From Myxococcota bacterium (lineage in GTDB: Bacteria; Myxococcota; Kuafuiibacteriia; Kuafuiibacteriales; Kuafuiibacteriaceae): a stretch of 64,000 nt of DNA. The stretch lies in assembly GCA_050331295.1 (NCBI GenBank), contig JBHJGZ010000003.1, positions 53,459-117,458 on the forward strand. Direction: 5' to 3'. The notes beneath the pieces are model-generated. The model saw nothing but the letters and a program-made list of their open reading frames with translations. It had not been told where the DNA came from and made no database searches. The translations under genes and the position numbers were made by a program. Position 1 is the stretch's first letter; every line of letters starts with the position of its first letter. Shown one piece after another: positions 6,289 through 15,239 of this stretch.

Positions 6289-7551
6289 ATGCCTCGCGCA
6301 CGGGTTCGTTTTACGGCAGCATTGCTGCTATCTTGGCGCTTCGCCGTGGAACGTTGGGCCGATGCCGCAGATGGTCGCCGCCGGCCGGCACCTCCACCTG
6401 GCTGGTCAGCGGTATTCATATCCGCCCAAATCGTCCTCGGCCTGAGCGTGCCGGCGGCTCGCGCTCAACCCGCAGAACCCGCCTCGGACGACGAACAAGA
6501 CCGGACCGAATCGTCTTCGCGCGACGCCGCGACCGACAAGCGTGACTCGACCGCCTCGATGGGTGCAGGCAATCCGTTGAGCGTTTCGGAAGAGGATGAG
6601 AAACGTTGGACCCTCGCGGGCTCGGTGGAGGTCGACGTCGGTTCCTCGATCCTCGCCACCGACGATGCGTTCGTCGCGCTCGCCTTCAATGCGCAAGGCT
6701 TCTATCGCCTCAGTAAGCTATGGGAAGGACAGGTCGACGCGGTGCTCCAGCTCGGCGGAACCCAGCGACTGGATGCATCGGTGCGCGACGGACTGGGCGG
6801 GACCGCGCCGCAGCAGTTCTTCTTCTCGGACATCGTTGTCGGGTTCCTCGGCCGCCGGCTGTTTCTGGAAGACAAGACCGGCATCTCATTTGGCGCCAAC
6901 ACGCTGTTTCGCCTGCCGACGTCAGACGCGGCCCGGGCGTTCGACCGAAGACTCCGCTGGGATAACACCCTCAATGCGGCCCGGTCGTTTGGAAACGTGG
7001 GTCCTGGTACCGCGATCTTCGTCCTCAGGGGAACCTTTCGGAAAGACTTTGCCCCGGACAATCCGTCCCTCGATGACAACGAAGCTCCGAGCATCGTCGC
7101 CGGCGTGTGTTCGGCTGGAGCGACCCGGGCTGACGGAACATGCGCCAGCGACCAAGCCAACCTCGACTGGGGATTCATCAGCTCGATCACGGCGAGATAC
7201 CTGACCCGGGTCGGTCTCAATTTCTCGACTTCATTCAGCATCTTCTACAATCGCTTCAGTGACATCGGAGGGGGAGAGGACCCAGAGACCCTCGTCGCCG
7301 GCGACGGACTGGAAGTCGGTTCCAGCCCGAACAGCGTTTCGGGGCCCGCGAGCACTCTGTCATTCTTCACCGCGTTCAGTATCCAATACGTCTTCAATCC
7401 GTATCTTTCTGCCAGCACCGGGATTCAGACGCTCCAGAACGCCTTCGTATTCGAAGGCGACAGCAATCGAAGCGTTTCAAATCCGTTCTTTGCAGAAGAT
7501 GCTGCTGATAATTCGACGTCATTCTTCTTCAATGTTGCTGCGAACTACTAG
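6289..7551 (+). CDS. Putative outer-membrane beta-barrel protein
   Basis: Signal-like segment ending AARA-Q; alternating hydrophobic strands; C-terminal FFFNVAANY resembles a BamA beta-signal. Start uncertain. Confidence 0.7.
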   Translation: MPRARVRFTAALLLSWRFAVERWADAADGRRRPAPPPGWSAVFISAQIVLGLSVPAARAQPAEPASDDEQDRTESSSRDAATDKRDSTASMGAGNPLSVSEEDEKRWTLAGSVEVDVGSSILATDDAFVALAFNAQGFYRLSKLWEGQVDAVLQLGGTQRLDASVRDGLGGTAPQQFFFSDIVVGFLGRRLFLEDKTGISFGANTLFRLPTSDAARAFDRRLRWDNTLNAARSFGNVGPGTAIFVLRGTFRKDFAPDNPSLDDNEAPSIVAGVCSAGATRADGTCASDQANLDWGFISSITARYLTRVGLNFSTSFSIFYNRFSDIGGGEDPETLVAGDGLEVGSSPNSVSGPASTLSFFTAFSIQYVFNPYLSASTGIQTLQNAFVFEGDSNRSVSNPFFAEDAADNSTSFFFNVAANY

Positions 7552-8792
7552 AGGAGGCTGAGAAGCCACGCGATCACCAGGAGCAGGAAGACCGCGAAGA
7601 GCCCCCCGACCGCCCTCGGCCATCGCTTCTGCTGCCGATTCTCCTCGAGAGCTTCGATACCCGCCTCAGCTTTCATGAATACTTCTCGGCTGGCCGATGG
7701 AAGGTCGGACCGTTCTTCAGAGGTGTCGAATGCCGCACCATCCAGCGGAGCCGACCCGCGCATTCGCCCGTGCACCGGTGACAGGCTCGCGGGAACCGCG
7801 GGCCCAGAAGACGGCGTTGTAACCGGTCCTTCGTTCGAAGCAGTCGGGGACGTCAGCGACAGGACCGAATCGAGGAATCGTTCGACCGCACGGTGTTCGT
7901 CTGTCTTTCCAGCTTGCGCAAGGGCTCTCTCCAAAGCCTTCCGCAGAGCCGAAGCGGTTTCGAAGCGCTGGCCGGCGTCGGGGTGCAGAGCGATCTCCAG
8001 TGCTTCTGACATCGCGGTCCACCGAAACGGGAGCAGGCGCTCCACCGGGGGCCGTTCGCGGTTCAAGATCGCCCGCATGGTCTCCTCACGAGAAGATCTT
8101 CCGTAGATCTGCTTTCCAATCATGAGTTCCAAGACCAGGAGTGCGACGCCGTACAGGTCGGCGCGCGGTCCTACCGTCTTCTTCGCTTGAAACTGTTCGG
8201 GCGAAGCATAGGGAAGCGACGCCGAGGGCACGCGAGGCGAAGCAAAACTGACGGCCGTGTGACCGAAATGCGCCACGAAGACGCGGCCGGTCGAAGCGAC
8301 GTACACCGCGTCCGGAGAGACGTTCTGATGAAGAAAACCGGCTTCGTGCGCGAAGCCCAGCCCATCCAGGACACGCAGGCCGATCGTCGTCGCGACGTCG
8401 ACCGGTGCTGGCATCCGAAGGGACCACAGACGCCTCATCAGCGGCATCAGCCGCACGCCATGATGGTACTCATAAACAATGGCTGGTCGATCTTCGACCT
8501 GTATCGACTGCAGGGCTCGGAGAATGTTGGGGTGACGGAGCCGGAGAGCCATCTCCGCGCTGCCTAGAAAAAACGGCCGAAAGCGAGGCGTCTGCCAAGC
8601 TCGTGGCGACGGGCACTCCAAGAGCACGAGTTTGGTGGGGCCCGTCGATTGGTCCTCTCCGGTGTAGAGGGTAGAGAAGTCGGTCGAGCCCTCGATCCGC
8701 ACGATTCGATATGGACCGTAGGTCCGACCTAGACACTGCAGATCAGCCGAACTCTGCCCCTCGAAGGGCTGGGGCTCCGACTGCCAGGGCAT
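7548..8792 (-). CDS. Membrane-anchored Ser/Thr kinase-like protein, probable pseudokinase
   Basis: Kinase fold (LRHPNI, YASPEQ, ADLYG), but VAIK>VLLE, HRD>HQN and DFG>HFG; C-terminal TM. Confidence 0.85.
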   Translation of the reverse strand: MPWQSEPQPFEGQSSADLQCLGRTYGPYRIVRIEGSTDFSTLYTGEDQSTGPTKLVLLECPSPRAWQTPRFRPFFLGSAEMALRLRHPNILRALQSIQVEDRPAIVYEYHHGVRLMPLMRRLWSLRMPAPVDVATTIGLRVLDGLGFAHEAGFLHQNVSPDAVYVASTGRVFVAHFGHTAVSFASPRVPSASLPYASPEQFQAKKTVGPRADLYGVALLVLELMIGKQIYGRSSREETMRAILNRERPPVERLLPFRWTAMSEALEIALHPDAGQRFETASALRKALERALAQAGKTDEHRAVERFLDSVLSLTSPTASNEGPVTTPSSGPAVPASLSPVHGRMRGSAPLDGAAFDTSEERSDLPSASREVFMKAEAGIEALEENRQQKRWPRAVGGLFAVFLLLVIAWLLSLL

Positions 8793-8907
8793 CGCCCGAA
8801 TCTAACGCAGCGAGCCTTCTGATTCACGGCCACCTCTCCCCCGTTCGTGGGTTGGTGTCGGCACGAGTTTCAGAGTCGCGACGCGGCGTCCGGGCACGTC
8901 TTCTGCG

Positions 8908-10758
8908 TCACAGACCGTCGGCTTGTTGCCCGGTTAGAGCTGCCTTGATGGACGTGTTCATACGACGCGCGGCGAACTCGGCCGAGGCCTGGTCCAGAGC
9001 TTCGATACGCTCCCGGATCAGTTGCGGGTTGGCGGCGGACATCGCTTCCTGAAGCTCTTCCCTTTTGGCCTCGAGTTCCTGCCGCTCATCTGGAGCCAGG
9101 AGGTGACCATCGTTTCGAAGCGCCTTCTCCAGCGCAACCAGGATCTGCTCGCCGTCGACCCGTGCCTCAACCAGTACCCGATGGCGAACGTCGCCCTCGG
9201 CGAACTCGAAGGACTCCATGATCATTCGCTCGATCTCGCCGTCATCCAGACCATACGAAGGTTTGACTTCGATGGACGCGCGCTCCCCGGTGGTTTGCTC
9301 GATGGCAGATACGTTGAGCAGACCATCCGCATCCACCGAGAACGTGACCAGTACCTTGGCCATACCCGCCCCCATTGGGGGCAGATTGGAAAGCTTGAAC
9401 CGGGCGAGGGAACGACAATCCGATGCCATCTCTCGCTCACCCTGGACCACGTGAAGGTCGATTGCGGTTTGCCCGTCGACGTAGGTTGTGAACTCCTGCG
9501 CCGCCTCGGCGGGTATGGTCTGATTTCGGTGCAGGAGCTTTGCAGCTGCTCCTCCCATCGTTTCGATTCCCAACGACAGCGGCAAGACGTCCAGGAGGAC
9601 CACGTCTTCCCGTGGTCCCCGACCTGCCAGCAGGTCGGCCTGCACCGCCGCCCCGAGAGCCACGACTTGGTCGGGGTCGAGGTCACACAATGGTTGTTGC
9701 CCGAAGAGTTCGGCCACGAAGCCACGAACCCTCGGTACGCGCGTCGACCCGCCGACCAACACGACGCCGTCGAGCTCCTCGCCATCCAAACCGGTGTCCT
9801 TGAGCACCCGCCGGATCGGAGGCAGGGTCCGTTTGAGGATCGGCTCTATCAGGTCGTCAAACTCCGTACGACGGAGCGAAAAGCTCTCGCCGCCGATCTC
9901 GATGGTCGTCAGCTCCTGCTCCGTCAACGATTCCTTGGCCTGTCGAGCGGCGGCCAAAGCCTCAGCCGCCGTCTTTGGATCCGCATGCCTCGGGTCTTGA
10001 CCGCATCGAGCGAGAAAGTGCTCAGCCACCGCTCGGTCGAAGTCGTCTCCGCCTAAACGAGCGTCTCCGCCGGTGGTCAGGACGTGGAACACGCCGTCTT
10101 CCAGGCGGAGCACGGAGATGTCGAAAGTCCCCCCGCCGAGGTCGAAGACCGCGAACATCCCTTCCTTCTTTTTGTCGAGGCCATAGGCCAATGCAGCGGC
10201 GGTCGGCTCATTGAGCAGCCTGAGGACCTGAAGCCCAGCAACCCGAGCGGCATCTTTGGTGGCCTGGCGCTGCGCATCGTCGAAATACGCCGGTACGGTG
10301 ATGACCACGCCTTCCAGCGGGCCCCCCAACGCCGCTTCGGCCCGGGCTTTGAGGGCTGCCAAGATCCGAGCCGAGACCTCGATCGGTGTCACGCTGTCGC
10401 CGTGGCCGAGGTCGAAATAGACAACCGGCCCATCCGAGCGTGAGGTGAAGCGGAACGGAGAGAGCTCGGTCTGGGCCTGGGCTTCGGCCTGGCTCCTTCC
10501 CATGAAACGCTTGGCCGAAGCGATGGTCCGGTGGGCGCGCTCGCCCGCCCGACTCTTCGCTTCGTATCCGACCTCAACCGTGGCGTCGGTCCCGAAGTGT
10601 ACGACCGACGGAAGCGTGGCTCTCCCCTGGGCGTCGAGCAGGACCCGCGGCGAGCCGTCATCCATGACCGCAACCAGAGAAAAAGTCGTACCGAGATCGA
10701 TGCCGGCAACGAGCCCGGCGCATCGTTCTTTATTTTGTCCAATCTGTAGTAGTGACAT
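8908..10758 (-). CDS. hscA: Fe-S assembly chaperone HscA (Hsp70)
   Basis: [21 protein letters not shown] motifs; 616 aa; follows hscB in the isc operon. Confidence 0.95.
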
Positions 10759-10767
10759 CGTCTGCTT

Positions 10768-11367
10768 TCAACCGGTCTCCGCCGCGGAGTCGGCTCGGAC
10801 CGCCACCCCTTCTCTCAGCCGCTCCAGGTACCTGACCCGTTCCAGGCGCGAAGCGACTTCATCGAGTCCGCCCTCCTGACGGTCGAAGAATGCTTCGGCC
10901 GCCGAAAGCTCGGCCTGGATCGCCGCCTTCAATTCGCGGTCGAGGTCATCGAGCTCTGCATCGGCCGTAGAGTCCAGCCGCTCCCGCAGACTCATCATCT
11001 CCATCAGAAGCTCCGGATCATCGGTTCGACTCGATTCGGAAGACAGATCTCGCCCGAGAAGCTCGAGCAGGTACTGCGCACGACGAGCTGGACGCTTGAC
11101 GACCTCATAGGCATCATTGAGCGCCGTGGTGTGCTGGACGGCCAGCCTCCTCTCGATGCTCGAGCGGCCGGAAAAGCGGTCCGGATGAACACGCTTGGAC
11201 CGGGCTCGGAACGCTCGGTCGACCTCGCGTCGATCAAGGCCCATCCGGCGAGGAAGACCAAGGGCCTGAAAGTGATCCGACGGCTGATGTGCAACCAGCG
11301 CGCCGCAGGATGAACATGTGATGTCTTCACCCGGTGCGGCGCCGCAGGACCAGCATCCATCCTTCAT
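10768..11367 (-). CDS. hscB: Fe-S assembly co-chaperone HscB with N-terminal tetracysteine motif
   Basis: J-domain HPD, RAQYLL and LMEMM motifs; CWSC-x9-CSSC at the N-terminus. Confidence 0.92.
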   Translation of the reverse strand: MKDGCWSCGAAPGEDITCSSCGALVAHQPSDHFQALGLPRRMGLDRREVDRAFRARSKRVHPDRFSGRSSIERRLAVQHTTALNDAYEVVKRPARRAQYLLELLGRDLSSESSRTDDPELLMEMMSLRERLDSTADAELDDLDRELKAAIQAELSAAEAFFDRQEGGLDEVASRLERVRYLERLREGVAVRADSAAETG

Positions 11368-11735
11368 CGCGGCGTGAACGACTCTCCGCAGCCGCAGCCC
11401 TTACCCGCCTGCGGATTGATGAACTTGAAGCCGGACTCCATGAGCCCCTTCACGTAGTCGAGGGTGGAGCCCTGCAGAAACACCATGCTCTTCGGGTCGA
11501 TGTAAACGTGCACGCCATCTTGCACGATGACGTGATCGGTCGTCTTGGGGCTGTCCTCGACGTCCAGAAAGTACTGAAGCCCGCTGCAGCCGCCGCCTCG
11601 AACCCCGACCCGGAGACCCGCACCCTCGGACGCAGCATGCTCCTTCAGATATTTGGCGATGGCCGCGGCGGCCGACGCGGTCACCTCCAATGTTCCGGTA
11701 GCGGCCGGCCGAGGCTGGAGGACGGAAAGAGGCAT
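11364..11735 (-). CDS. iscA: A-type Fe-S carrier IscA
   Basis: GGGCSG and CGCGESF motifs. Confidence 0.93.
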   Translation of the reverse strand: MPLSVLQPRPAATGTLEVTASAAAAIAKYLKEHAASEGAGLRVGVRGGGCSGLQYFLDVEDSPKTTDHVIVQDGVHVYIDPKSMVFLQGSTLDYVKGLMESGFKFINPQAGKGCGCGESFTPR

Positions 11736-11738
11736 GGT

Positions 11739-12143
11739 TCACTTCTCCTCGGCGGACGCCTTGGCGGTCTTCTTCTTCTTCCAGTCGGCCACCGCCGCCT
11801 TGATGGCGTCTTCCGCCAACACGGAGCAGTGCACCTTGACGGGCGGGAGAGCCAGTTCTTCCACAATCGTGGTATTTCGCAGGGTCTCGGCGAAGTCTAG
11901 CGACTTTCCTTTCACCCACTCGGTCACCAGCGAAGAGGACGCGATGGCGGACCCGCATCCGAAGGTCTTGAACTTCGCATCTTCGATGATGCCGTTTTCG
12001 TTCACGCGAATCTGGAGGCGCATCACGTCTCCACAAGCCGGTGCGCCCACCAGGCCCGTTCCGACCGACGGATCCTCCTTGTCCAAGGTGCCGACGTTCC
12101 GGGGGTTCTCGTAGTGGTCGATGACTTTGTCGTTGTAGGCCAT
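11739..12143 (-). CDS. iscU: Fe-S scaffold IscU
   Basis: MAYNDKVIDHYENPRNVG, APACGD, FGCGSAIASSS, LPPVKVHC; AAGGAG SD upstream. Confidence 0.97.
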   Translation of the reverse strand: MAYNDKVIDHYENPRNVGTLDKEDPSVGTGLVGAPACGDVMRLQIRVNENGIIEDAKFKTFGCGSAIASSSLVTEWVKGKSLDFAETLRNTTIVEELALPPVKVHCSVLAEDAIKAAVADWKKKKTAKASAEEK

Positions 12144-12172
12144 TCTGATCTTCTCCTTATCGTTAATCGTGC

Positions 12173-13537
12173 TCAGTGAGCAGCCCATTCAATGGAATTG
12201 AGGTCTATGCCGTCTTTGTGCATTTCGTACAGAGGCGACATCTCGCGGAGTTTCTTGACGCGACTTATGACGAGATCGGCGACGTAGTCGACTTCTTCCT
12301 CGGTGGTGAAACGACCCATGCCGAAGCGAATCGAGCTGTGGCCGAGGTCGTCCCCGACGCCGAGGGCCCTGAGGACGTAGCTCGGTTCCAAGGAGGCCGA
12401 TGTGCATGCAGAGCCGGAGGATACCGCGACGTCCTTGATGGCCATCATCATCGCCTCTCCTTCCACGAAGGCGAACGAGACGTTGATGTTTCCCGGGAGC
12501 CTGCTCTCCGGATGCCCGTTGACGAAGATTTCGTCCAAAGACGCGGACAGCCGATTCCAGAAGCGCTGGCGAAGCGCAGTCAAGCGTTGCGCTTCCTCCG
12601 CCATCTCGCGTTCGCAGATCTCGGCCGCGGCTCCAAGGCCTACAATGCCGGCAACGTTGAGGGTGCCACTCCGCATGCCTCGCTCATGACCTCCGCCGTC
12701 GATGACCGCCTCGAGGCGAACCCGCGGCTTCTTGCGTCGAACAAACAGCGCGCCCACCCCTTTGGGTCCGTACATCTTGTGCCCCGAGATGCACAGCAGG
12801 TCGATGTTCATCTCGTTCACGTCGACCGGAACCTTTCCAACCGCCTGCACCGCGTCGGTGTGGAAGAGTACTCCGTGCTCGCGACAGATCGCCCCGATCT
12901 CTTTGATCGGTTGAATGACACCGATCTCGTTGTTGGCGAACATGATGGAGACCAGGATGGTCTTGTCGGTAATGGCCGCCTTCAAATCTTCGAGCCGGAT
13001 CAACCCGTCCTTCTGCACCGGGAGGTAGGTGACTCGATATCCTTCTTTCTCCAGTCGCTTTGCGCTATCCAGAACCGCTTTGTGCTCGGTGACCGCCGTG
13101 ATGATGTGGTCTCCCCGCTTCTTGAAGTAATTCTGCGCGCCTTCCTGGGCGATGGCTTCGAGATCGAGGGACCCAAACTTACCTGGGACCAACGTTTCGG
13201 CGTTGGGAATCGTGCCCGATGCATGGCCCTTCGCCAACGCGTCCAGCATCAGCTTTTCGGCCTCGGTCATCCCGTACATGTGGGCGACACCCTTGAGGGC
13301 GAGGTTGTCGCCTTCGGTTGCGCCGCTGGTGAAGATGATCTCTTGCGGCGTCGCACCGATCAGCCGAGCGACCTGCTCTCTTGCCCGTTCCACGGCCTCT
13401 TCGGCGACCCATCCGAACTGATGGGACCGACTGGCGGCGTTGCCGAACTGAACGGTCTCGTACGGCGCCATGGCTTCCCGAACGCGGGGGTCCAAGGGCG
13501 TCGTTGAGTTGTAATCCATATATATTGGGGTCTTCAC
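12173..13537 (-). CDS. iscS: Cysteine desulfurase IscS with a 50-aa insertion
   Basis: GTG start; [21 protein letters not shown] (PLP Lys), SSGSACTS (catalytic Cys), SPLYEM; 454 aa. Confidence 0.96.
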
Positions 13538-13541
13538 ACTT

Positions 13542-14060
13542 TCACCTTTGCTCGCCGTTTCGATGAATGCCGGCGATGAGCACCGGCTGGGATATGCTGT
13601 GGGGTTGCTCGCAGGAACGGCAGCCATCGAGTCCCGAGTGTTCGGCACAGCTGTGGCAGGATTCCAGGTACGACAATCCGGCTTGCAGCTCGTGCTCGAG
13701 AGAAGAAAGCTCTCGAAGCTGTCTTCGCACCTGCTGCAGTTTTTCCACGAACAGTCCTCGGACCTGGATCATCGCGGATGGTCCAGACCCGGCATTTTCC
13801 AGCTGCTCGAGGAAGGCTCGGATGTCCGGGAGGGAAAGACCGAGGAGCTGAAGCCGGTCTATCCACTGAAGGCGAAGGAGCGCATCCCCGGAGTACAGGC
13901 GATGCCCGCCCTCGGTCCGTACCGCCGGACCCAGAAGCTGCATGTCCTCATAAAGGCGAAGCGCTCTCGGGCTTTTCCCGGATCGCCGCGCCAGATCGCC
14001 GATCTTCAGGGTCGCGGGGGCTTCGGCCCGCTGGAACTGAATGTCGATCGACTCGCTCAT
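13542..14060 (-). CDS. MerR-family transcriptional regulator with C-terminal CxxC-x8-CxxC
   Basis: [26 protein letters not shown] wHTH; coiled coil; [16 protein letters not shown]; ends 4 bp before iscS. Confidence 0.92.
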
Positions 14061-14067
14061 GCCTCAA

Positions 14068-14095
14068 AATCTGACCTTAACGTTAACGTCAGATT
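14068..14095. promoter_or_regulatory. 28-bp palindromic operator, probable MerR-family site
   Basis: AATCTGAC-C-TTAACGTTAA-C-GTCAGATT, 13 of 14 positions symmetric, 7 bp upstream of the merR ATG. Confidence 0.8.
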
Positions 14096-14101
14096 GTCCT
14101 G

Positions 14102-14130
14102 GTTCTGCGCTCCTTCGCCCTCCTCGTCAA
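14102..14130 (-). promoter_or_regulatory. Candidate sigma70 promoter of the merR-isc operon
   Basis: Minus strand TTGACG-N17-CAGAAC; predicted +1 near 14095, at the edge of the palindrome. Confidence 0.45.
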
Positions 14131-14192
14131 GCAAGGAAGGTCCCTTTCGACTCGATTGCCTCGGGTGGCGGCCTCTCGAAGCGTCTCCGGCG

Positions 14193-15239
14193 TCAATCCT
14201 TGGCTTGACCTAGGCGTTCACCCTTATACCGCGACGCGTGAATCGCCTCCCACCACGCCCGGTGCTCGAGATACCACCGCACCGTCTTCTCCAGGCCTGA
14301 GGCGAAGGTCTCCTCGGGTTTCCACCCTAGCTCCCGGCCGACCTTCCCGGCGTCGATGGCATACCGTTTGTCGTGCCCCGGTCGATCCTTCACGAAGGTC
14401 ACGAGCTCACGGCGAGGGCCTTCGGGCCGGGGCTCCACTCTGTCCAATAGATCGCAGACCGCGTACACCACGTCGAGATTGGGGACTTCGTTGTGTCCTC
14501 CGATGTTGTAGACCTCGCCCGGAGATCCTTGCGTCAACACGAGGTGCAGCGCGCGGGCGTGATCTTCGACGTGAAGCCAATCTCGGACGTTGTCTCCCTT
14601 TCCGTAGACCGGGAGCGGCTGGCCCAGCAGACCGTTGATGATCATCAGCGGAATCAGCTTCTCGGGGAACTGGAACGGGCCATAGTTGTTCGAGCAGTTG
14701 CTCGTCACCGTCGGGAGACCAAAGGTGTGGTACCAAGCCCGAACCAGGTGGTCCGAGCCGGCCTTCGACGCCGAATAGGGGGAGTTTGGCGCATATGGCG
14801 TGTTCTCCGTGAACAGCCCCTCGGAGCCCAGCGAACCGTAGACCTCGTCCGTCGACACGTGATGGAATCGAAAATTCGAGCGATCCTCGAGCGATCGATA
14901 ATACTCGAGAGAGGCTTCGAGCATCGTATACGTACCGACTACGTTGGTTTGGATGAACACCGCGGGGCTATCGATGCTGCGGTCCACGTGAGATTCGGCT
15001 GCGAGGTGCATCACGGCGTCCGGTCGATGCTCTCGAAAGATGCGACGAACAGACGCCCCGTCGCAGATGTCCACCTTCTCGAACCGATAACGCTCGTCCC
15101 CGGCCACGGCGTCGAGAGCTCCCGGCGTGGCGGCGTAGGTCATCTTGTCGACGTTGACGACCGAGACCGACTGACCGATGAGATGACGAATCACGGCGGA
15201 TCCGATGAAGCCGCATCCACCGGTGACGAGTACTTTCAT
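14193..15239 (-). CDS. rfbB: dTDP-glucose 4,6-dehydratase
   Basis: [43 protein letters not shown]. Confidence 0.96.

Follow-up and report, generated by a model that had tools for sequence, protein, structure and literature searches.

Locus and gene content

The subject of this work is an operon for the assembly of iron–sulfur (Fe-S) clusters by the ISC system, together with the gene of the MerR family located at its head, in a Myxococcota bacterium of the family Kuafuiibacteriaceae (assembly GCA_050331295.1). The operon was found on the minus strand of a stretch of 64,000 nucleotides (nt) of contig JBHJGZ010000003.1 (positions 53,459 to 117,458), hereafter the window, whose own numbering is used throughout. 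L and G numbers denote our own labels for loci and genomes. The features of the regulator gene, termed here merR, and of its upstream region are given below; lengths of proteins are in amino acids (aa), and pLDDT is the predicted local distance difference test value of the AlphaFold2 (AF2) model.

14074–14095, palindromic, minus-strand reading AATCTGACGTTAACGTTAAGGT: candidate 22-bp operator, 13 nt upstream of the merR ATG
13542–14060, minus strand: merR-family regulator gene, 172 aa (open reading frame (ORF); Pfam MerR_1, MerR, and MerR-DNA-bind)
13803–14006, minus strand: Pfam MerR_1 match, residues 19–86 (pLDDT 90–97)
13659–13784, minus strand: long dimerization helix, residues 93–134 (pLDDT 92–98; fold matches to CadR, BmrR, NmlR, SoxR, and CueR)
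13599–13658, minus strand: candidate sensor module C135-x2-C138-x8-C147-x2-C150-x3-H154, directly after the dimerization helix

The genes following merR were assigned by the NCBIfam scores given here against the corresponding cut-offs.

12173–13537, minus strand: iscS, cysteine desulfurase of 454 aa with an insertion of about 48 aa (NF010611, 683 vs. 548 bits, matched in two stretches)
11739–12188, minus strand: iscU, scaffold (TIGR01999, 222.9 vs. 192.4 bits, residues 18–140); likely start at an internal ATG, 12143
11364–11735, minus strand: iscA-type Fe-S carrier (TIGR00049, 117 vs. 58.8 bits)
10768–11367, minus strand: hscB, co-chaperone with an N-terminal C5-x2-C8-x9-C18-x2-C21 motif (TIGR00714, 69.3 vs. 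46.75 bits)
8908–10758, minus strand: hscA, chaperone, the last Fe-S gene of the operon (NF003520, 831 vs. 620 bits)

The merR gene ends at position 13542, and iscS starts with a GTG codon at position 13537 (V-K-T-P-I-Y-M-D-Y), leaving a gap of 4 nt; a Shine–Dalgarno-like sequence, AAGGTGA, is located within the 3′ end of merR ahead of iscS. The genome (4.97 Mb, 14 contigs, 98.25% complete) contained no match to SufB; ISC is the only Fe-S assembly system found in it. No Rrf2 gene was present within the 64-kb window. The sole match to the Rrf2 domain (PF02082) in the whole genome was weak (38.7 bits) and fell in the C-terminal part of a 456-aa ORF resembling a membrane protein (L001 511–1881, plus strand, another contig); not being a small Cys-bearing protein, this is no true Rrf2 regulator. 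No regulator gene other than merR is attached to the isc operon of this genome.

Regulator protein

The 172-aa protein belongs to the MerR family. Its scores with PF13411, PF00376, and PF09278 were 54.9, 46.5, and 40.3 bits against cut-offs of 21.6, 28.2, and 25.4 bits, respectively, and the MerR_1 match had an E value of 9.8e-15. The Rrf2 domain (PF02082) was not matched by the protein in Pfam. Resemblance to the NCBIfam models of ZntR, CueR, CadR/PbrR, MerR, and SoxR was confined to residues 18–137, and the protein remained below all equivalog cut-offs by more than 75 bits: ZntR (NF007069), 66.4 against 143 bits; CueR (TIGR02044), 63.7 against 147.4 bits; CadR-PbrR (TIGR02047), 51.8 against 151.45 bits; MerR (TIGR02051), 50.5 against 150.85 bits; and SoxR (TIGR01950), 41.1 against 116.9 bits. 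The match to the SoxR model covered residues 18–127 and ended before the Cys region. The regulator does not belong to SoxR, ZntR, CueR, CadR, or MerR proper, nor is it related to IscR or RisR.

A preliminary description of the interval 13542–14130, made from the sequence, had presented its product as a MerR protein with a winged helix-turn-helix (HTH) and a coiled coil, ending in CxxC-x8-CxxC-x3-H and distinct from SoxR. Both Pfam and the ORF translation agree with this, and the SoxR score, like the place at which that match stops, bears out the distinction. Its 4-bp gap between merR and iscS is confirmed by the coordinates, and the lack of an Rrf2 gene holds for the window, the genome having only the weak match given above. 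The interval itself is coding up to 14060; the remaining part, 14061–14130, is noncoding upstream DNA with the operator.

The AF2 model of the regulator (mean pLDDT 85.5) has a 42-residue helix at residues 93–134, after which the Cys region follows at once. Confidence in the model is moderate in the Cys region (pLDDT 72–79). A fold search returned, as whole-protein relatives, only MerR proteins (CadR, BmrR, NmlR, SoxR, and CueR). Sequence matches in the PDB covered the DNA-binding and helix parts only (MerR 4ua1, 7e-21; PbrR 5gpe, 7e-18; CueR and CadR, about 1e-15; SoxR, 4.4e-9); all of them ended near profile position 122, so that no solved structure was found for the Cys module by sequence. 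The fold matches likewise extended over the DNA-binding and helix parts. In an Atlas search with residues 126–172, all scores were below 0.9, and a cluster of SoxR-family fragments at 0.84 is a lead only.

Residues are numbered as in the alignment of 20 close homologs (A1). C135, C138, C147, and C150 were invariant in 20/20 of these homologs, and H154 was present in at least 90%; Y131, L132, P159, and L161 were also invariant, as were I20, G21, D22, L23, A24, R32, A33, R35, L36, Y37, and E38 in the N-terminal part, and M97 is near-invariant. Beyond the Cys module, the sequence continues into a conserved tail, P-x-L-[IV]-x-G-[IL]-H. When 1.84 billion cluster representatives were searched with a profile, 159 clusters were obtained at E ≤ 1e-30; C-x2-3-C-x6-12-C-x2-C was present in 119 of the best 150 representatives. 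The spacings within the first pair and between the pairs were 2/8 in 58 of these 119, 3/8 in 26, and 2/9 in 21; the remaining 31 of the 150 were mostly truncated, frame-shifted into iscS, or slightly different in spacing. The module is located at the effector position of the MerR family, directly after the dimerization helix, where SoxR holds its [2Fe-2S] cluster and MerR, ZntR, CueR, and CadR hold their metal. The partner-chain Cys found at the start of the dimerization helix in MerR, ZntR, and PbrR is replaced by a conserved G-P-x-A-M.

Conserved linkage to isc and suf genes

Among 40 related genomes searched with an ortholog cut-off of E ≤ 1e-30, orthologs were found in 20 besides the genome of the window. 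The merR gene was located directly upstream of iscS-iscU on the same strand in 20/20 loci (L002–L021, the first being the window) and in G022; in all 21 ortholog-bearing genomes, isc is headed by the ortholog. A scan of public contigs gave 121 relatives, and the counts below refer to the best 80 of them. Their carriers were nearly all labelled as metagenome-assembled Myxococcota, Nannocystaceae, or “Deltaproteobacteria”, some labels being plainly wrong. The merR gene was followed by iscS in 75/80 loci, with a median gap of 13 nt in these 75, and by iscU-iscA-hscB-hscA next, wherever the contig reached. In another four loci (L087, L096, L097, and L099), merR was followed by suf genes:

L099: merR, then an IscA-like (sufA-like) gene, sufC, sufB, sufD, sufS, and sufU
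L087: merR with a suf layout like that of L099 (tblastn)
L097: merR with the IscA-like gene only
L096: merR with sufB at the contig end

Only one locus of the 80 (L101) was devoid of adjacent Fe-S genes; the operator was present, and genes of an extracytoplasmic function (ECF) sigma factor and QueG followed. The regulator family heads Fe-S assembly operons in many uncultured bacteria.

In a maximum-likelihood tree of 85 sequences, from which one of the 80 public members was left out (by read-through, its frame exceeded 300 aa), the suf-linked members were found at two positions: three formed a clade, and the fourth was nested among isc-linked Myxococcota. The number of context changes between isc and suf on the tree was 2 in all bootstrap replicates. 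That the gene is linked to two Fe-S systems without homology to each other argues more strongly than any other finding for Fe-S biogenesis itself as the business of the protein.

A paralogous MerR clade with the same C-x2-C-x8-C-x2-C spacing was split off in the tree by a long, well-supported branch. Its members are the following:

L153 6140–6631, plus strand
L154 3546–3941, minus strand
L151 2300–2818, plus strand

In G038, a Fer2 ferredoxin gene and a 135-aa ORF precede the paralog, which is located at the 3′ end of the isc operon; in G029, it is likewise downstream of hscA, and in G025, it lies away from isc, after UDG and LOG-family genes. No ACCCT...AGGGT operator was found near the genes of this clade.

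Operator and promoter region

The operator consensus ACCCTnACGTnnACGTnAGGGT specifies 18 positions. In 74/81 loci, among them all four suf-linked loci and L101, a site upstream of merR agreed with the consensus at 14 or more of these positions. Among 154 equally long controls from coding regions, the highest count was 12/18, and 0/154 reached 13. Weak symmetric conservation (C at −3 and G at +24, A at −1 and T at +22) extends the palindrome to 28 bp. A position weight matrix (PWM) was built from the 61 best homologous sites, and the whole genome of the window was scanned with it: the operator of the window scored 30.0 bits, the next independent genomic hit 12.7 bits, and the maxima in shuffled genomes ranged from 14.7 to 21.4 bits. 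Since there is only one strong site in the genome, the regulator seems to have one target, its own operon, which would amount to autoregulation. A wider regulon within this genome was considered and dropped, as the scan gave no second site above noise.

At 14068–14095 of the window, the palindrome spans 28 bp and can be read in two overlapping 22-bp registers, offset by 6 nt (30.0 and 22.8 bits). The GTnAGG half-site is repeated at 6-nt phasing in many loci. In G029, two full operators 57 nt apart were found upstream of merR (L154 9594–9672; 30.6 and 27.1 bits).

A weak promoter candidate of the window, AGGACA-20 nt-TCAGAT, would set the transcription start at or beside the merR ATG. The first in-frame ATG follows the operator by 8–18 nt in 26/74 loci and by a longer distance in the others; the 8–18-nt spacing would fit leaderless transcripts from a promoter overlapping the operator.

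Distribution in relation to Rrf2 regulators

The distribution of the regulator was compared over 41 genomes of the phylum, i.e., that of the window and the 40 related ones; adjacency of Rrf2 and sufB genes was read from coordinates and confirmed by tblastn in eight genomes.

MerR ortholog present, 21 genomes: SufB in 0/21; Rrf2–sufB arrangement in none
SufB present, 14 genomes: Rrf2 directly upstream of sufB in 13/14; MerR ortholog in 0/14
Neither MerR ortholog nor SufB, 6 genomes: Rrf2–sufB arrangement in none

The MerR–isc and Rrf2–sufB arrangements are mutually exclusive among the 41 genomes. In the family to which the window belongs, the MerR protein is lacking in only two genomes (G011 and G013), and SufB and the Rrf2–sufB arrangement occur in these two alone. 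According to excerpts of the report on Myxococcus xanthus (PMC9973013), the Rrf2 protein RisR, whose gene lies upstream of sufB, carries an Fe-S cluster and acts as a repressor of isc and suf, while the isc operon has no leading regulator gene. The exclusion of the two arrangements fits the replacement of a RisR-type regulator. A strict exclusion between the MerR ortholog and any Rrf2 protein was rejected, Rrf2 proteins being encoded in 13 MerR-bearing genomes.

Comparison with known regulators

SoxR (PDB 2zhg), to our knowledge the only established Fe-S-holding MerR protein, shares with the regulator the winged-HTH and coiled-coil fold as well as the four Cys directly after the dimerization helix. 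However, the Cys motif of SoxR is compact, whereas that of the regulator is C-x2-C-x8-C-x2-C(-x3-H). SoxR acts on soxS or efflux genes, whereas the regulator heads its own Fe-S assembly operon, and the operator consensus of the two also differs. The nearest solved relatives by sequence (7e-21 to 1e-15) and fold are the metal-ion sensors ZntR, CadR, PbrR, CueR, and MerR, which also have a 22-bp palindromic operator and an effector site after the coiled coil. In contrast to them, the regulator has no trans Cys at the helix start, has a different Cys pattern, and was never found beside metal transporters in the loci examined.

IscR, which holds a [2Fe-2S] cluster, resembles the regulator in being encoded by the first gene of the isc operon, in its case that of proteobacteria, and the presumed task of both is to control Fe-S assembly by feedback; however, it belongs to the non-homologous Rrf2 family and recognizes a different operator. 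Excerpts of PMC11672702 give its cluster ligands as 3 Cys and 1 His on a different fold. RisR, of the Rrf2 subgroup IS6, is found in the same phylum and, according to excerpts of PMC9973013, holds an Fe-S cluster and is dedicated to repressing isc and suf; unlike the regulator, it is an Rrf2 and not a MerR protein and is encoded at suf and not at isc, and the MerR-bearing genomes searched were without SufB.

MliR of Bizionia argentinensis is described in excerpts of PMC9478572 as a MerR-like, iron-responsive protein with no effector domain and no cysteines. It is tied to iron homeostasis but is not encoded at an isc or suf operon, and it was rejected as a described relative of the regulator for its lack of the effector domain and cysteines. 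Full-text literature searches, within a scope that ended short of the supplementary Rrf2 census of PMC9973013, gave no MerR-family regulator of isc or suf. The excerpted text of that report makes no mention of “MerR”, and no such MerR protein appears in the excerpted account of a 2024 review of bacterial metal sensing.

The preliminary description had staked its proposal on conserved linkage to Fe-S genes, and isc or suf genes are indeed headed by the regulator gene in 21/21 related genomes and 79/80 public loci. It had also proposed the regulator as a candidate undescribed one, in line with the outcome of the literature searches, and as a non-homologous replacement of IscR. Replacement fits the distribution, but the replaced regulator was more likely of the RisR type than IscR.

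Proposed mechanism and alternative explanations

The protein is very probably a dedicated regulator of Fe-S assembly, and it probably fills the role that IscR or RisR usually has. In its position and presumed task, it would act like either of them; by the placement of its cofactor it may work like SoxR. We propose that the dimeric MerR protein would bind the 22-bp palindrome at its own promoter and would thereby autoregulate merR-iscS-iscU-iscA-hscB-hscA. The C-x2-C-x8-C-x2-C-x3-H module would be the sensor, taking an Fe-S cluster from the very machinery that the regulator controls (ISC and, elsewhere, SUF); that the cofactor of the module is Fe-S, the option that we favor, has, in our estimate, an even chance at best. 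Both the cluster-bearing and the cluster-free form would stay on the operator, as is the case for other MerR proteins. The cluster-bearing form would hold the promoter off, and loss or oxidation of the cluster would turn it on via the usual MerR change in DNA twist. Operon output would then track Fe-S demand or damage, and the regulator would take the place of an Rrf2-type regulator (RisR or IscR) in its lineage. The chain as a whole, with the dimer on the palindrome, Fe-S on the Cys4(His) site, the cluster form off, and its loss or oxidation switching the operon on, seems to us slightly more probable than its negation.

Several points weigh against this mechanism. A consensus scan of positions 8000–14400 found no sigma-70-like promoter, and conserved −35/−10 hexamers were absent from the operator flanks (15 nt before and 30 nt after) of the 74 operator-positive loci, where base frequencies revealed only the continuation of the palindrome. 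In MerR-type layouts, the operator lies between −35 and −10 hexamers spaced 19–20 bp; because no promoter hexamers were found, we do not claim this placement here. The apo form of SoxR is inactive, so an “apo = on” switch would be unusual for the MerR family. By sequence, the regulator is closer to the metal-ion sensors (MerR, 7e-21; PbrR, 7e-18; CueR and CadR, about 1e-15) than to SoxR (4.4e-9), and the CxxC...CxxC layout is also typical of structural Zn sites. Rrf2 proteins are also encoded in 13 of the MerR-bearing genomes, although the best-scoring copy per genome did not adjoin isc or suf. The related genomes are kin and their counts overstate independence; the exclusion pattern, too, may rest on few evolutionary events for the same reason. 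Finally, a diverged homolog in G025 (L150 4964–5317, minus strand) heads iscS-iscU-iscA-hscB-hscA without the C-terminal cysteines and has no recognizable operator (best PWM score −3.2) and a very long branch.

The module could instead be a Zn(Cys)4 thiol switch, in which oxidants, persulfides, or electrophiles would oxidize the thiols and release Zn, and the change in shape would turn isc on. The protein would then sense oxidative stress and not Fe-S supply, with isc switched on to rebuild damaged clusters. A spacing of 8 residues between two CxxC pairs is common in zinc knuckles, HscB of the same operon has a similar C-x2-C-x9-C-x2-C resembling the Zn site of eukaryotic HscB, and the linkage and operator evidence fits a thiol switch as well as it fits an Fe-S sensor. 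Nevertheless, the first pair was C-x3-C in 26/119 representatives and the spacing between pairs varied from 6 to 12, which is looser than in most zinc knuckles; the near-invariant His four residues past the final Cys, like the invariant tail, hints at something beyond a simple Zn site; and the exclusion with respect to the arrangement of the Fe-S-holding RisR fits a like-for-like sensor best. We regard a thiol switch as unlikely.

A classical metal-ion sensor, in which the Cys4(His) loop would bind Fe(II) or a cluster-poisoning thiophilic metal (Cu, Cd, Co, or Zn) and the metal form would activate isc or suf, would be in agreement with the nearest solved relatives by sequence and fold (MerR, PbrR, CueR, and CadR) and with the best NCBIfam matches (ZntR and CueR, though far under the cut-offs). 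The 22-bp palindrome also resembles the operators of ZntR, CadR, and PbrR in length and outline. Such a sensor is improbable, however: the equivalog cut-offs were missed by more than 75 bits, the helix-start Cys of MerR, ZntR, and PbrR is replaced by the conserved G-P-x-A-M, and the 80 loci, which were examined for isc and suf genes, contained no metal efflux or uptake gene in any case. There is a smaller chance still that the cysteines are structural only, e.g., as a Zn clasp stabilizing the dimer of a plain autoregulator or of a responder to another signal. The moderate model confidence in the Cys region (pLDDT 72–79) leaves room for this, and L150 keeps its place ahead of isc without any cysteines; since its operator is also lost and its branch is very long, however, L150 looks degenerate and not typical, and the module lies exactly at the effector position of the family. 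That the MerR protein regulates something else and merely adjoins isc is barely credible. L101 has the gene and the operator without adjacent Fe-S genes, but it is 1 locus of 80, the other 79 being linked to two non-homologous Fe-S systems; the intergenic gaps are tight (median 13 nt), and no second operator was found in the window's own genome.

Other features of the operon and the genome

IscS of the window contains its insertion at residues ~77–125 with respect to the family models. IscS is about 454 aa long in the closest loci and about 405 aa in more distant ones, which suggests that the insertion is restricted to the family of the window. In HscB, the Cys motif (residues 5–21) precedes the J domain (Pfam DnaJ from residue 31), and its C-x2-C-x9-C-x2-C spacing nearly equals that of the regulator module. 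This motif is probably conserved, because tblastn matches in most loci start at residue 5.

No ferredoxin ORF or tRNA was found after hscA. A 414-aa ORF (7548–8792, minus strand) is located 115 nt past hscA, at the place where the isc operons of M. xanthus and G038 have a ferredoxin gene; that the M. xanthus operon ends with this gene is stated in excerpts of PMC9973013. Weak Rrf2 matches inside open frames of 430–670 aa, like the one in the genome of the window, recur in about a dozen related genomes, which suggests a conserved fusion of a winged-HTH-like domain to a membrane protein.

Significance

Control of Fe-S assembly is known almost entirely via Rrf2 proteins (IscR, RisR, and RirA) and SufR. 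If our interpretation is true, a second, unrelated DNA-binding scaffold has been recruited for the control of isc and suf, one whose members remain on DNA and twist it instead of dissociating. If the cofactor is Fe-S, the regulator would join SoxR as a second case in nature of a MerR protein with a cofactor. Tentatively, and with a likelihood somewhat short of even, it may represent a further class of Fe-S homeostasis regulators beside IscR/RisR and SufR: an Fe-S-bearing MerR protein that switches its own promoter by DNA distortion, that displaced the RisR type in ISC-only Myxococcota, and that was recruited to SUF at least twice. The system offers a clean test case, with one operator, one operon, and four cysteines, and with a sister lineage in the same phylum that uses RisR. 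Since no NCBIfam model reaches its cut-off, the genes are named only “MerR family transcriptional regulator”; their annotation would improve if the family were recognized.

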